Of a stretch of DNA of 7,014 nt, positions 1-6,000 are shown piece after piece. This stretch comes from a virus (taxonomy: Duplodnaviria > Heunggongvirae > Uroviricota > Caudoviricetes), in the IMG/VR virus record IMGVR_UViG_2660238209_000001; one strand, given 5' to 3'. Each line of letters opens with the position of its first letter. The stretch's first letter is position 1. The position numbers were made by a program.

Positions 1-3000
1 CATCAACAGGGAGTACAGGCGACTCGTATGACAACGCGATGGCTGAGAGCATCAATGGTCTTTACAAAGCGGAGGTAATACACCGTAAGAGCTGGAAAAA
101 CCGTGCAGAAGTGGAACTGGCCACACTCACGTGGGTGGACTGGTATAACAATCGACGATTGCTGGGAAGGCTGGGCCATACTCCTCCGGCAGAAGCAGAA
201 AAAGCTTATTATGCTTCCATCGGAAACGATGATCTGGCAGCCTGAGTTCACAGATAAAACACTCTCCAGGAAACCCGGGGCGGTTCACAGGCAGGTGAAA
301 GTGAACCAGTGTCACCGGTACCGAAAGTGACAGCGCAAATGCTGACTGAGGCGATTGAACAACATGGCCCACAAACGGCGGATGAGCTGGCACTGATGTT
401 CGGGATTACCTCCCGCCGGGCGAATTCATCGCTGGCCATGGCAATCAGCAAAGGGCGTCTGATTCGCGTGAATCAGGGCGGTAAATTTCGTTACTGCATA
501 CCGGGCGCTGATTTACCGGCAGAGCCGGAAGCTGCATCCGTAGCGGAAACCGATGGTAAAGCCTTTCCTCAGCCAGCAGGTGTTGCGTTACCAGTCCAGG
601 AAACGACGACACAGGAAGAAATGAAAACAGAAATCGTGGAAGACATTGTGAAGTTACAGCCATCGGTCACCGAAACGAAAGCAGATGACCTGATTCTACC
701 ATCGCTGCATGTGGCTAACCGCGAGCTGCGCCGGGTAAAAGGTCAGGTTCAGAAGTGGGAGCGAGTCTGCGCCGCGCTGCGGGAGCTGAACAAGTGCCGG
801 GATATTCTCCGGGATATTACCGCCACCAGAGAACAGCAGCGGTGAGTGGGTGGAAGACGTGGTGCCGGGCTGAAATTCTGATACTCCGGCAGTGCGCGGG
901 AACAATGAAGGTAAAAAGCATTGGCGCGCTTATCGGACGAACTGAAGCGGCAGTGAGAACGAAGGCACGGGAGCTGGGCATCAGCATGATGTTACGTGGT
1001 GATTTTCACCCGTCGGCAAAATATTCACAGCGTGATATTGAGCTGGCGCGGCAACTGCATCAGCGCGGTGTACCCCGACGGGAAATTGCCGAAAAGTTCG
1101 GAATGAAGTTGCGTGCAGTGAATAACTACGTTTATTTCGACAGGAGGGTTCAGGCGTGAGGGTGAGAATTTATATCGCCGGTCCAATGACGGGATATGAA
1201 AATTTCAACCGCGAGGCATTTCACAGGGCGGAAGAAGCACTGAAACGGGAAGGGCATACCGTCTTAAACCCGGCAGTACTTCCGGACGGGCTGACACAGC
1301 CGCACTACATGGATATTTGCATGGCAATGATTCGTTGTGTGGATGCGGTTTATATGCTGAATGGCTGGCAGCGGTCAGCGGGCGCTAAGGCAGAGCTGGC
1401 ACTGGCGGAGAAACTGGGGCATGCGGTGATTTATCAGGAGGTGGCTCAATGAGAGAGGTTAACTATGAGGCGCTTCGTGAGGCAGCACAAAACTATCAGT
1501 CGACGCTGGCGTGGTATCAGGCTATCCCGGACAGCCCAAATGCTGAACGGGATTGTGATGCGGCTCTTGCTGCGTTTAAGCGTCACATCCGTCATCGGGA
1601 AGCGGATATTATCGCTGATTTGCTGGATGGACTGGAAGAAGCAAAATCACAACTCAACGAGCAACGTGAGTATTACGAAGGTGTTATCTCGGATGGGAGT
1701 AAGCGCATTGCTGAACTGGAAGCGCGGGAAGTTCAATTACCGACTCGCTACGACCTTCGATATGGACACCCGATAAATGCAGATGAGCGACAAGTCATGA
1801 TACCTAAAGAAAATGGCAGTTGGCTTTACCTGATTGACCTAGAACACGCATTACGCGTCGCTGGCATTCGCATCAAAGGAGAGGAGCATGGAAATAAAAC
1901 CAGAAGATGAGTTAAGTAATATTGTTTTATTTCCGGTAAAAGAGGATGACCCACGTAATCAGGTTAATTTTCTTTATGAGCCATCGGAAAGACCATACTG
2001 CCATCACGCCTCTGTCCGGGTTGACGAAAAAGAGCGTCAGGTCCGCTGTAAAATCTGCGGTTCAGTTGTGGAGCCGTTTGACTGGATGCTCTCTGTGGCG
2101 AAAAGAGAAACCAGACTGGCAGATGATGTAAAGCTATTGCGCCAGGAGGAACAGGAAAGGCGAAAAAATATAGAAAAGTTAATTCAGATTGAGCGTAACG
2201 CGAAAGCGCGGATACGCAGGGCGTCAAAATCCAGAACTGAATAATTAAATTCAGCACTGTTAAAAATTTAATCCTTAACCGGAGGGATTCCTGCACCCTC
2301 AGAACATAAGGAGACCGCCTGAAAGGGTGGTAATGAAAAATGACTGAATTAACCAAAGAGCAATTAATCAAGGAAGCCAAATTAAAAATAGCGGTTGCGA
2401 ACTGTTACCCTAATTCAGAGATGGCCAGGGTAGAGGGTGAGCTATTCAAAATTGCACTGGCATCGCTGGAAGCAGAACCGATAGCGTGGGAATGCGGTGA
2501 AAACATAATCCTGTTTAACCCTGACACAGTTGAAGCATACGCAAAACGTGCGGAAATATCACCTAAACCACTATTCTCCGCGCCGCCAGCGCTGGTAGTG
2601 CCTGATAAGTTGCCGCGTGAATACAGAAACGGTTGGCCTCTTGCGTATAGTGATTATGCTGAAGGCTGGAACGACTGCCGCGAAGCCATGCTTCAGGGAG
2701 ATAAATCATGATTAATCGTATCAAGCTGGAGCACATCCTCGAATATGCCAGGCAGCAGAGGCATATTGGTCAGCATTGTAAAATTCCACCAGGAGATATG
2801 GTTGAAATCATGGAGATTGCCATGCGCAAGGCTGGCAATTCTCCGGTAACTCCGGATGGTTGGATAAGCTGTAGTGAGCGAATGCCGCCAGTTGGTGTTG
2901 ATGTACAACTGTTTGTGTCCAGCACGGGTGAACAGTTTACAGGTTTTAACCTGGATAATACGGGTGACTTCCAGTATGCGCAGTGTTTCGGTGCGCCCAT

Positions 3001-6000
3001 CGTGTGTGAAGCCACACACTGGATGCCGCTACCAGAACCGCCGAAGGAGGTGCGCCAATGAGCTGGCCTGAAGCCTTCTCAAATGTTGGTATTGCAATGG
3101 CGGTGGCGCTGGTTGTGTATTCGATTTGCCGCTGGGGATAATTTGCTGAAAAAAGATCCCGACACACACATGAGTCGGGGATCTTTGATTTATATAGCCT
3201 ACGAATCCGCCAGTAAGAGAGGGGGCGGACGGTTTATTCTAATACTGGAATTATGTGGGGAAAAGTTTATAAGAAATCGGTTTCATAACTTTGTCCGCCA
3301 TGATAAATACCTGCGATAAAGACTTTATTGCCATCAACGGCAAAAGCAATAATCGTTCTGTGGCGGAAGTGAGTTACCCGCATTCCCTGTCGAATATCAT
3401 CGCGTTTATTGCCCCGATGCGGGAATGTGGAAAACCCATCAAGATAATCAAGAAGTGCATTGGCATAATTGTCAGCAATGACGCTCCCTGCTTTCTCCGT
3501 TATATATCTGTGCAGGTTGATTATCTGCTGTTCGGCCTCAGGAGTAATGATGACTTCATATGTCATGCAGATTACTTCCCGGCTCGAATCGCGGCGCGAA
3601 CCTGTGAAATGGAGCGTCCGTTGTTTGGGTTTTCGCGGATAGAATCGAGAGATGGGGCGGCTGAATGCGTTAACCACGCTTCGATTGCTTTATCGCGCTC
3701 ATTCAGTGCGCGAAGCCCTTCACGAATGACCTCACTTTCTGAAGCATAGGCACCGGAAGCCACACGGGCGCGCACCATGTCAGCCATCTCGTTAGTTAAT
3801 GTAATGCTGAATTGTTGGGTTGTACGCATGGTAAACCTCCCGGAGTAGGATAGAACACTATTCGATGATAGCACACTGCCTGTTGACGACAACAGAAATC
3901 AGATACAATATTGCCGCACGCCAGCCTGAACAACTGGCACCTGCTGCGCCAGCAGAGACAACCGATGGCGCACGATACCAGATTTTACAATTCGGATAAC
4001 TCCGCCGCCCCTGCCAGCAGGCATGGGCGGCGTTCTCATGCATTCAAATCTGACTGGTTCCAGCATGACCCATGCACTGAAGAACAGGCCGAATGGCTGA
4101 TCCAGTGCTACCGCAGACGTGGTTACGAGTTTCAGAAAGATCTCAGTTTCTATCGTCGTCACTGGATAATCTCTGTCAGGCTCCCTTATTCCGAATGCCC
4201 ACCGCGTCCGTCCCGCACATTCCAGCAGCGCATCTGGAGGTAACGTGCGGGTATTACTTCGACCTGTTCTGGTGCCGGAACTCGGGATGGTGGTCCTTAA
4301 GCCGGGCCGTGAATCAATGTCAGCATTCCATAACGGCAGAATATTGGTGGAGCCGGAACCGAAAAACATGCGCGGTCTGCCGTCCGGAGTCGTTCCCGCC
4401 GTTCGCCAGCCGCTGGCAGAGGATAAAACATTACTGCCATTTTTCAGCGATGAGCGGGTTATTCGTGCTGCTGGTGGTGCTGGTGCACTGTCTGACTGGT
4501 TATTACGTCACGTGAAATCCTGCCAGTGGCCACACGGCGATTATCATCACAGCGAAACGGTCATTCACCGTTACGGTACCGGCGCGATGGTGTTGTGCTG
4601 GCACTGCGACAACCAGCTGCGCGACCAGACATCAGAATCACTCGATCAACTTGCTCAGCAGAATCTGGTTGCCTGGATGATTGATGTCATCCGTCACGCA
4701 ATAAGCGGTACGCAGGAGAGGGAGTTATCGCTGGCCGAATTATCCTGGTGGGCGGCCTGCAATCAGGTGGTGGATGCACTACCTGAGGCAGTAGCGCGTC
4801 GTTCGCTGGGATTACCGGCGGAAAAAATCCGCTCCGTATACCGTGAGAGTGACATCGTACCGGGAGAACAGACAGCCATCAGCATACTGAAGCAGCGCAC
4901 AAAAAATATTGCGCTGCCACTTCACGTCCACCAGCAACAAAATCCACCACAGAAAAAAACGGTTGTCAGTATCGCCGTTGATCCGGAGTCTCCTGAATCG
5001 TTCATGAGGCGGCCTAAACGTCGCCGTTGGGTTAATGAGAAATACACGCGCTGGGTAAAGACACAGCCGTGTGCGTGTTGTGGTAAGCCAGCTGACGATC
5101 CGCATCACCTGATTGGTCATGGTCAGGGGGGAGTGGGAACAAAGGCCCACGATATTTTCACGCTACCGTTGTGCCGGGAGCACCACAACGAACTTCATGC
5201 AGACCCGCTGAAGTTTGAGAAAAAGTACGGCTCTCAGGTTGAGTTAATTTTTCGTTTTCTTGATCACGCCTTTGCGACTGGCGTGCTCGGGTAAAAGAGG
5301 TGACTGATGCTCATAGATTTGGTTTTACCTTACCCGCCGACGGTGAACACTTACTGGCGACGCCGTGGCAGCACATATTTTGTATCAAAAGCCGGGGAGC
5401 GTTATCGCCGGGCAGTGGCGCTTATTGTTCGCCAGCAGCGGCTGAAATTAAGCCTGTCCGGACGGCTGGCAATAAAAATTATTGCAGAACCACCGGATAA
5501 GCGCCGCCGTGACCTGGACAATATTCTGAAAGCACCGCTGGATGCGCTGACGCACGCGGGGTTGTTAATGGACGATGAGCAGTTTGATGAAATCAATATT
5601 GTACGTGGAAAGCCAGTATCTGGTGGACGTCTGGGGGTGAAGATTTACCCCATAATGCTTGAAGGGCAGGTTAAAAAATGAAACTGGAAGATTTACCGAA
5701 ATACTACTCCCCAAAATCCCCTGGCCTGACCGATGCATCGGCCTCAACGTCAAAAGATGCGCTGAGTATCACTGATGTGATGGCCGCGCAGGGCATGACA
5801 CAGAATCGGGCTGAGATGGGGTTTTCTGCGTTCCTTGGGAAAATGGGCATTAGTATGAATGACAGAGAGCGGGCAACAGAATTGCTGACAGAATATGCAC
5901 TCAGTCGGTGTGATCGCGTGGCGGCGTTAAGAAAACTCCCGGCAGAAATAAAACCGGCAGTGATGCGTATTATGGCTTCGTATGCGTTTGAAGATTATGC

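Follow-up and report, generated by a model that had tools for sequence, protein, structure and literature searches.

Overlapping early genes in an Escherichia coli O111 prophage probably form a mosaic accessory array rather than a single seven-protein system

The DNA analyzed here, a window of 7,014 nucleotides (nt), is IMG/VR record IMGVR_UViG_2660238209_000001, from a virus of the Caudoviricetes, and our subject is a run of seven small open reading frames (ORFs) on its plus strand between positions 842 and 3141. These encode, in order, a helix-turn-helix (HTH) protein, a DUF4406 protein, an Ead/Ea22-like protein, a zinc ribbon protein, an Eaa-type protein, a DUF551 protein, and a peptide of 27 amino acids (aa). 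A preliminary description had taken them for one translationally coupled operon and had raised the possibility that their products operate as a single system. We consider, with a probability of roughly 0.8, that the block is a mosaic accessory array of individually exchangeable genes, belonging to the rightward early operon of a lambdoid prophage of the Rac/Sp type, and not one seven-protein machine. That these are accessory early-operon genes of a lambdoid phage, essentially without established function, had been correctly recognized from the outset.

The genes seldom travel as a set. Of 5426 complete E. coli genomes, 3465 contained part of the interval from 842 to 3200 but only 44 contained 80% or more of it, and nearly all of the listed genomes with the full block were O111 strains; among 50,697 phage records, 380 contained part of the block and none contained 80% or more. 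Gene neighborhoods were scored around six anchor genes, for each of which up to 80 IMG/VR loci were fetched, these being its closest relatives and dominated by E. coli, and scoring was confined to nonidentical loci with at least 2.6 kb on both sides. The full gene set appeared in one or two per 30 to 46 nonidentical neighborhoods, among dozens of architectures that included DUF1627-HTH-Eaa-DUF551-27-aa ORF, DUF1627-DUF4406-Ea22-zinc ribbon, and zinc ribbon-DUF551-27-aa ORF. Because the samples comprised the closest relatives of each anchor, linkage is, if anything, overestimated. Co-occurrence as a conserved unit, the mark of a multigene defense or antidefense system, was not found across the genomes, phage records, or neighborhoods.

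Similarity to other sequences breaks off where the genes meet. The ends of 374 nonredundant alignments cluster at the gene joints, left ends falling at 1140 to 1155 (79 ends), 1845 to 1860 (56 ends), and 3045 to 3060 (30 ends) and right ends at 1440 to 1455 (38 ends), 2280 to 2340 (107 ends, in groups of 39 and 68), 2880 to 2895 (22 ends), and 3135 to 3150 (18 ends). These breakpoints delimit a DUF4406 cassette of about 1140 to 1452 and a zinc ribbon cassette of 1845 to 2338, the latter comprising a 5' leader, the gene, and a 95-nt spacer (2245 to 2339), with recurrent E. coli genome matches to query positions 1018 to 1497. Each cassette starts 15 to 45 nt upstream of its start codon, so that it carries its own ribosome-binding leader with it. 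The consequence is visible in three unrelated proteins encoded upstream of zinc ribbon genes, namely, the 153-aa Ea22-like protein of the window, a 345-aa Ea22-like protein of phage ArgO145, and a DUF977 protein of strain 2D, which share the tail AGIRIKGEEHGNKTRR, or AGI(R/C)IKGEEHGNKTR(R/G), encoded by the zinc ribbon leader. GC content falls from approximately 0.55 over the HTH and DUF4406 genes to approximately 0.44 over the zinc ribbon and Eaa-type genes. Since breakpoints lie at the joints, tails are shared through leaders, and coupling partners vary, the overlaps are a property of the individual cassettes and of their splicing, not of a seven-gene unit.

We suggest that the array arose as a concatenation of at least five exchangeable cassettes (HTH, DUF4406, Ea22-like, zinc ribbon with its spacer, Eaa/DUF551 modules, and the 27-aa gene) that have no detectable promoter of their own and would each bring a Shine-Dalgarno sequence and start codon within a short leader. 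On joining, the leader would become the 3' end of whichever gene lies upstream, giving rise to the ATGA, GTGA, and 23-nt overlaps. The overlaps may help both to pack the genes and to express them from a polycistronic early transcript that is read through, probably by translational coupling or reinitiation, and would also be the joints at which cassettes recombine. The products would then act separately: the HTH protein is likely to bind DNA, and the zinc ribbon protein, with its basic helix, perhaps does so too; the DUF4406 protein probably participates in nucleotide or nucleoside processing; the Ea22-like protein, by analogy with its lambda and Shiga toxin (Stx) phage counterparts, probably modulates the lysis-lysogeny decision; and the 27-aa peptide likely has a role at the membrane.

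Some observations count against so complete an exchangeability. Linkage is not zero: the sub-blocks DUF4406-Ea22-zinc ribbon and Eaa-DUF551-27-aa ORF recur, and the relative order of the cassettes is conserved among close relatives. The linkage statistics, moreover, span short evolutionary distances and are not phylogeny corrected; the scan that found no promoter-like site on the plus strand of 288 to 3141 was a crude consensus scan; and our account presumes that transcription comes from an early rightward promoter, that translation is coupled, and that the downstream hairpin is read through. The recurring sub-blocks invite an interpretation of the block as two or three smaller units, DUF4406 with the Ea22-like and zinc ribbon proteins on one side and the Eaa-type protein (2340 to 2711) with DUF551 and the 27-aa peptide on the other. 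Loci anchored on DUF4406 contained Ea22 in 37 of 40 cases and the zinc ribbon gene in 38 of 40, those anchored on Ea22 contained DUF4406 in 41 of 41 and the zinc ribbon gene in 38 of 41, and those anchored on Eaa contained DUF551 and the 27-aa ORF in 23 and 28 of 37 cases, respectively. Other genomes encode proteins of 205 to 215 aa in which an Eaa-type and a DUF551 module are fused, and a DUF551 gene precedes the 27-aa ORF in 65 of 122 contexts. The linkage is asymmetric, however, for zinc ribbon anchors were accompanied by DUF4406 in only 18 of 46 loci and by Ea22 in 10 of 46, and 8 of 32 DUF551 anchors had none of the other block genes nearby. In 6 of 19 HTH-anchored loci, as in the O157 relative, DUF4406 is present without Ea22, the zinc ribbon gene elsewhere follows DUF977 or a different Ea22, and the DUF4406 and Ea22 samples were at least 94% identical to the query, so that their linkage may reflect recent common descent. 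We therefore regard smaller functional units as unlikely, while conceding that they have some claim to attention.

Far less can be said for one cofunctional system, devoted, for example, to host takeover or antidefense, in which the overlaps enforce stoichiometric coexpression. Tight packing, Shine-Dalgarno motifs at most junctions, the intactness of all seven ORFs, their location in an early accessory region, and the recurrence of the full arrangement at 99.6 to 100% identity in 44 genomes would all suit it, but that recurrence looks clonal, nearly all of the listed genomes being O111. The same genes occur elsewhere in other combinations, breakpoints fall at every joint, the same type of overlap joins each cassette to unrelated upstream genes, a 95-nt gap breaks the chain, and no protein matched the PADLOC catalogue; we consider such a system very improbable, and the assortment data have already largely refuted it. 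It is also improbable, if less decidedly so, that these are lysogenic-conversion genes of the moron type, which the lysogen would express from promoters of their own and which host benefit would keep intact in spite of the missing early promoter. All of the ORFs have survived the upstream loss, the adjacent toxin-antitoxin cassettes are autonomous units, and tolerance of peroxide is influenced by YfdS, a DUF551 protein encoded in the cryptic prophage CPS-53 (PMC4776307). Against this, a moron would possess its own promoter and terminator, yet the block offers no promoter-like site, its sole terminator is that of ParDE, and its ribosome-binding leaders are embedded in the preceding genes rather than set in a promoter-gene-terminator layout; intactness in a clonal lineage (99.6 to 100% identity), furthermore, says little about selection. 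An array of exchangeable cassettes thus remains our preferred reading.

The gene anatomy given in the preliminary description was accurate: there are seven ORFs, with GTGA joints at 842 and 1156, ATGA joints at 1449, 2708, and 3058, and a longer overlap at 1888, making five overlaps of 4 nt and one of 23 nt. The stop codon of the DUF1627 remnant (TGA, 843 to 845) overlaps the GTG at 842 to 844, that of the HTH gene (TGA, 1157 to 1159) overlaps the GTG at 1156 to 1158, and that of the DUF4406 gene (1450 to 1452) overlaps the ATG at 1449 to 1451, a GGAGG sequence lying 8 nt 5' of the starts at 1156 and 1449. The Ea22-like ORF ends at 1910, beyond the zinc ribbon ATG at 1888, which is preceded by GGAG at 1878 to 1881 and again at 1883 to 1886; the last two joints are ATGA at 2708 to 2711 and at 3058 to 3061, the latter with AAGGAGG upstream. 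Good Shine-Dalgarno motifs thus stand before the starts at 1156, 1449, 1888, 2708, and 3058. The junctions exceed what chance would give, because every ORF has a Pfam or PHROG match or, for the 27-aa ORF, evidence of purifying selection and because the junctions recur in homologues. Profile searches of the proteins against Pfam and PHROGs upheld the family labels, and all six larger proteins match PHROGs (phrog_323, phrog_355, phrog_250, phrog_1621, phrog_5117, and phrog_924). Two particulars needed amendment: the overlaps are real, but the chain is interrupted by the 95-nt noncoding gap at 2245 to 2339 between the fourth and fifth genes, and the seven genes were counted correctly but only six families were named, the ORF at 2340 to 2711 encoding a separate Eaa-type protein without a Pfam match.

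The first gene (842 to 1159, plus strand) encodes a putative 105-aa tandem HTH DNA-binding protein that matches phrog_323 (9.3e-27), annotated as a transcriptional regulator; the Prokaryotic Genome Annotation Pipeline (PGAP) calls the product a DNA-binding protein. Its Pfam matches fall narrowly short, with Sigma70_r4_2 at 24.0 against a cut-off of 25.7 and HTH_23, HTH_7, and HTH_28 just under their cut-offs, and a search of PDB sequences gave PINS/TPR matches with no stretch passing on its own. Two alternative starts, the CTG at 878 used by PGAP in O111 genomes and the ATG at 905, were rejected in favor of the GTG at 842 after comparison of homologues. The GTGA joint is kept in nearly all of 22 sequence variants, variation in the N-terminal extension consists of synonymous and conservative changes, the ATG at 905 has become AGG in six copies, and a homologue in a different upstream context retains the extension, as does the annotation of the O157 homologue, which has 105 aa and the same 4-nt overlap. 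The N-terminal W..W..AEI.ILRQ segment of the 105-aa protein would complete the first helix-turn-helix.

The second gene (1156 to 1452, plus strand) encodes a 98-aa DUF4406 protein apparently related to nucleoside 2-deoxyribosyltransferases. Residues 4 to 93 match positions 2 to 91 of the 91-position PF14359 profile (4.5e-37; 126.8 bits against a cut-off of 22); the match to the nucleoside 2-deoxyribosyltransferase family PF05014 reaches 16.9 bits, below the gathering cut-off of 28.8, and that to phrog_355, which bears the name of this enzyme, reaches 1.1e-47. A PDB sequence search returned no relative, and our literature search found DUF4406 mentioned in just three papers, none of which deals with its function. 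The third gene (1449 to 1910, plus strand) encodes a 153-aa protein whose strong match to PF13935 (6.2e-12; 46.7 bits against a cut-off of 27) is limited to residues 3 to 65. This Ead_Ea22 segment is followed by an unrelated C-terminal part, of which the last 14 or so residues come from the leader belonging to the cassette that follows. A search of PDB sequences (E <= 1) gave weak, unrelated matches only, with no Ea22 entry, and the C-terminal domain of lambda Ea22, for which a structure has been solved, is not shared. Ea22 proteins are mosaic, with mutually unrelated C-terminal domains among variants (PMC10834534), and Ea22 of lambda and of Stx phages favors lysogeny (PMC7093339, PMC10834534).

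The fourth gene (1888 to 2244, plus strand) encodes a 118-aa protein with a putative zinc ribbon and a long basic helix, which matches phrog_1621 and scores 22.2 against a cut-off of 29 with the TFIIB-type Pfam family Zn_Ribbon_TF (PF08271). C38, H40, C54, and C57 are invariant in 46 homologues, found in the Enterobacterales only in our homologue search, and the basic C-terminal helix is strongly conserved. An AlphaFold2 model built from the homologue alignment (mean predicted local distance difference test score [pLDDT], 77) consists of a beta-hairpin ribbon and a 55-residue helix spanning residues 63 to 117, and its top Foldseek match is a TFIIB ribbon, at an E value of 0.27. The 95-nt spacer moves with this cassette and not with the downstream gene. 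Within it, AAGGAG at 2308 to 2313 is parted from the ATG at 2340 by a small hairpin (ACCGCC-TGAAA-GGGTGGT), and a 4-codon mini-ORF (ATG at 2333) overlaps that start; this arrangement was dropped as a candidate element, the fold of the spacer being nonsignificant (z = -1.7).

The Eaa-type protein (2340 to 2711, plus strand; 123 aa; phrog_5117; "Eaa protein" in UniRef) has no Pfam match, but homologues 87% identical over 97 to 98% of its length are proteins of 205 to 215 aa with a C-terminal PF04448 domain. It therefore corresponds to the N-terminal module of longer Eaa-DUF551 proteins, which explains why it is so often paired with a DUF551 gene. Its conserved motifs are IALASLEAEPIAW and GWNxCRxAML, and only an N-terminal helical hairpin is confident in its AlphaFold2 model, likewise built from a homologue alignment (mean pLDDT, 70). 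The neighboring 117-aa DUF551 protein (2708 to 3061, plus strand) consists of a variable N-terminal region of 45 residues and a DUF551 domain, residues 51 to 113 covering the whole 68-position PF04448 profile (4.8e-15; 56.6 bits against a cut-off of 22), and the 22 right breakpoints at 2880 to 2895 coincide with the boundary between these two parts. DUF551 has been described as a portable domain (PMC10834534). Eaa and DUF551 proteins are mosaic within genes as well, variable N-terminal helices being joined to the conserved linkers IALASLEAEPIAW, GWNxCRxAML, and SPVTPDGWISCSERMP, which coincide with DNA breakpoints at about 2445 to 2475 and at 2880 to 2895; many otherwise unrelated genomes match the block solely in a 55-nt segment at about 2830 to 2887. 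Foldseek searches of the PDB gave no match at E <= 0.001 for either the Eaa-type or the zinc ribbon model and hence no functional lead from structure, and PDB sequence searches with six block proteins disclosed no meaningful relatives. NCBIfam gave no match in the block proteins (only ParD, outside the block, was hit), the PADLOC catalogue, which covers defense rather than antidefense components, gave none for any protein, and Rfam gave none in the window at E <= 0.1.

The one new detail of the block is its last gene, an unannotated 27-aa ORF (3058 to 3141, plus strand) that starts in an ATGA overlap behind AAGGAGG and encodes MSWPEAFSNVGIAMAVALVVYSICRWG, a predicted single-pass membrane microprotein; from its pattern of conservation it appears to be a real membrane peptide gene. 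The fetched loci held 82 distinct sequence variants in at least five upstream and at least six downstream contexts, with the consensus M[ST]WPEAF..VGIAMAVALVVYSICRWG, and the 27-codon frame was intact in 73 of the 82. The ratio of nonsynonymous to synonymous substitution rates (dN/dS) was approximately 0.07 to 0.35 in divergent pairs; against MIWPEAFAITGVAMAIAFLVYVICRCG, dN was 0.25 and dS was 3.3. The ORF occurs in 1724 of the 5426 E. coli genomes, in up to nine copies per genome and at 161 places on plasmids, and in 88 phage records, including those of 933W (2501 to 2584 in locus L462), VT2-Sakai, and the virulent phage Av-05 (1501 to 1584 in locus L463); it also lies at 2501 to 2584 in locus L464 and between gp05 and gp04 in YYZ-2008 (locus L459). 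It was absent from the Qin prophage of K-12. It is always tightly coupled to the gene upstream, and four different upstream genes are joined to it by ATGA. Every record inspected leaves it unannotated, and full-text literature searches for the peptide sequence, like searches of the supplements of a ribosome profiling paper on O157 Sakai small genes, found nothing; with only 84 nt, it probably falls short of the minimum that gene callers usually require. On balance we lean toward regarding it as a translated single-pass membrane microprotein family of lambdoid and some virulent enterobacterial phages that annotation pipelines have missed, a conserved terminal gene of such arrays, usually just 5' of a toxin-antitoxin cassette, with a specific phage-relevant function at the membrane. 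Such a function might, for example, lie in superinfection exclusion, in modulating some target in the membrane, or in an interplay with the Hok or ParE module next to it.

The last ORF is followed at 3152 to 3186 by a hairpin resembling a bidirectional intrinsic terminator (-16.6 kcal/mol; z = -3.2), both strands folding at about -16.5 kcal/mol (z, about -3.2), with U6 after it on the minus strand and UUUGAUUUAUAU on the plus strand. A terminator scan had passed over this hairpin, the loop and bulge of which fall outside the scan rules, and folding confirmed it. Beyond it lies, on the minus strand (3267 to 3829), a convergent cassette of a ParE toxin (3267 to 3566) and a ParD antitoxin (3572 to 3829), annotated by PGAP and, for ParD, matching TIGR02606 (1.2e-14). 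In 122 nonidentical contexts the first recognizable gene 3' of the 27-aa ORF was hokD in 72 cases, an opposite-strand parE in 21, and another gene in 28; a GATCCCG-type hairpin was present in 20 of the 21 ParE contexts and in none of the 72 HokD contexts. By this distribution the hairpin belongs to the ParDE cassette, and with its U6 tract on the minus strand it would be primarily the parDE terminator. The block had been described as one tightly coupled operon that ends at a terminator, which is not supported: the hairpin goes with ParDE, and the unit in intact relatives would have to extend through DUF968 and RusA, transcription running on to Q. The site between the 27-aa ORF and the 92-aa and DUF968 genes (3152 to 3829 in the window) can be viewed as a toxin-antitoxin slot, occupied by hokD in most relatives and by ParDE here and in ArgO145; O157 prophages and 933W carry hokD or hok/sok there, and K-12 Qin carries relBE plus hokD. 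The corresponding intervals compared were 11868 to 12023 in locus L461, 2676 to 2950 in L462 (933W), 3047 to 3202 in L464, and 7120 to 7873 in L465 (K-12 Qin). For the 27-aa ORF, 93 of the 122 contexts had a toxin-antitoxin cassette as the first recognizable gene downstream.

The window is 99.6% identical over its full length to E. coli O111:H8/NM chromosomes, at least 80% of it being held by 42 of the 5426 complete genomes, and it is part of a defective lambdoid prophage of E. coli O111, the left arm of which was lost at an insertion of IS1203. In NZ_CP027307 the order from the left is the host gene yciI, a small recombinase gene, IS1203, a DUF1627 pseudogene recorded by PGAP as "missing N-terminus," genes for the DNA-binding protein, DUF4406, an ead/Ea22-like protein, two hypothetical proteins, and DUF551, the convergent ParE/ParD pair, and then genes for a hypothetical protein, DUF968, RusA, an antitermination protein, a methyltransferase, lysis proteins, terminase, and portal. 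By the PGAP annotation of this 99.6% identical genome, positions 1 to 287 (plus strand) are the 3' end of IS1203, a member of the IS3 family, whose transposase ORF stops at 245; its terminal inverted repeat, read from the sequence, ends with CGGTTCA at 287. In the alignments, similarity to DUF1627-bearing loci begins at approximately 285 to 299. The region that follows (288 to 845, plus strand; ORF 309 to 845) is the remnant of a DUF1627 gene (PF07789, 3.4e-81), a pseudogene deprived of its N terminus by the insertion sequence; its phrog_630 match begins at profile position 78 of 253, and the intact O157 relative measures 717 nt. Strain E2863 has a second copy of IS1203 in the same region. Because IS1203 truncated DUF1627 and replaced the left arm, which would have contained the integrase, immunity, and replication genes and the early promoters, the array is left without its native promoter. 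In the O111 genome it is a promoterless relic behind IS1203, and the notion of a single operon is not supported there either. The right flank (3965 to 6499, plus strand) is conserved and, from Pfam, PHROG, and PGAP assignments, encodes a 92-aa hypothetical protein, a DUF968/HNH protein resembling YdfU, a RusA resolvase, and a Q-type antiterminator, with 85% identity to YdfU and 40% to YdfT of K-12 Qin. In Qin of MG1655 (about 6310 to 6585 of locus L465, minus strand) an intact 92-codon ORF between rem and ydfU, directly upstream of ydfU, encodes a product 73% identical to that of window positions 3965 to 4243; the returned RefSeq feature table for MG1655 has no coding sequence there.

The practical value of these results is in part negative, in that the block is not a candidate seven-component system to pursue: where genes overlap in the early regions of lambdoid phages, the overlap is a feature of packing and recombination and no proof of joint function. 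The kind of organization has long been known, and the locus is already annotated in RefSeq. The block does provide a clean example of expression-preserving mosaic joints, in which cassettes bring their ribosome-binding leaders and unrelated proteins gain identical C-terminal tails. The gene of the 27-aa peptide, found in about one-third of complete E. coli genomes and in 933W-type Stx phages, is a candidate for small-protein studies of enterohemorrhagic E. coli prophages.

The intact prophage at potC in E. coli O157:H7 provides the setting for a comparison with known phage regions. Its left part runs from int and xis to racR, which is followed by genes for an HTH protein, YdaT, a DnaT-like protein, replication protein P, and DUF1627; it continues with the homologue of our HTH gene, DUF4406, DUF4752, a hypothetical protein, an Ea22-like protein, a second hypothetical protein, DUF551, and a 34-aa peptide and ends with hokD, a hypothetical protein, DUF968, RusA, and Q. 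Judged by this gene order, the block occupies the variable stretch between P/DUF1627 and DUF968-RusA-Q, the nin position of lambda. The ninR region of lambda, in which small genes (ren and ninA through ninI) separate P from Q, was reportedly described by Kroger and Hobom in 1982 as an interlinked gene chain with overlapping stop and start codons. The two regions share their position between the replication genes and Q (evident in the intact O157 relative, since in the window the left half was removed by IS1203), small and presumably nonessential ORFs with ATGA-type overlaps, a lack of promoter-like sites within the block by our crude scan, terminator-like structures inside an early rightward unit, and a Holliday junction resolvase and Q directly downstream. 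They differ in that none of the seven block proteins matches a Nin family in Pfam or PHROGs and in that the intact relative has an immunity and replication setting of the Rac kind (racR/ydaS/ydaT), not of the lambda kind.

The 27-aa product resembles the Hok-family type I toxins in being a single hydrophobic helix of similar size and in the location of its gene, directly 5' of hokD in 72 of 122 contexts, but it has no sequence similarity to HokD, its gene is coupled to an ordinary upstream gene, and no antisense RNA or mok-like leader was identified for it, Rfam having no match in the window. The yfdQ-yfdR-yfdS-yfdT cluster of the K-12 cryptic prophage CPS-53 is likewise a run of small accessory genes that includes one for a DUF551 protein, YfdS; overexpression of yfdQRS/T inhibits the initiation of replication, and YfdS is linked to peroxide tolerance (PMC4776307). 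The partners in that cluster, however, are a DUF2302 protein and the HD-domain protein YfdR, no homologue of YfdQ, YfdR, or YfdT was found in the window, and the portable DUF551 domain is the only shared feature.

The block also resembles the exo-xis (ea) region of lambda, P22, and Stx phages, which is highly mosaic and contains the same gene families (PMC7093339, PMC10834534, PMC8614690). In the Stx phages YYZ-2008, ArgO145, and 933W, Ea22 and zinc ribbon genes, Eaa and DUF551 genes, the 27-aa ORF, and toxin-antitoxin genes lie between exo and xis/int. YYZ-2008 has an Eaa-like gene, DUF551, and the 27-aa ORF between exo and xis; the 345-aa Ea22-like gene of ArgO145 overlaps a zinc ribbon gene by the same 23 nt and is followed further downstream by the 27-aa ORF and the same convergent toxin-antitoxin pair as in the window; and in 933W the 27-aa ORF overlaps L0139 by ATGA and precedes sokW/hokW. 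The Ea22-like protein of the window shares only the N-terminal segment of lambda Ea22, and the window genes belong to the rightward early operon, whereas those of exo-xis belong to the leftward one. The shared families suggest that the array was drawn from the same gene pool as the leftward early exo-xis segment in Stx phages.

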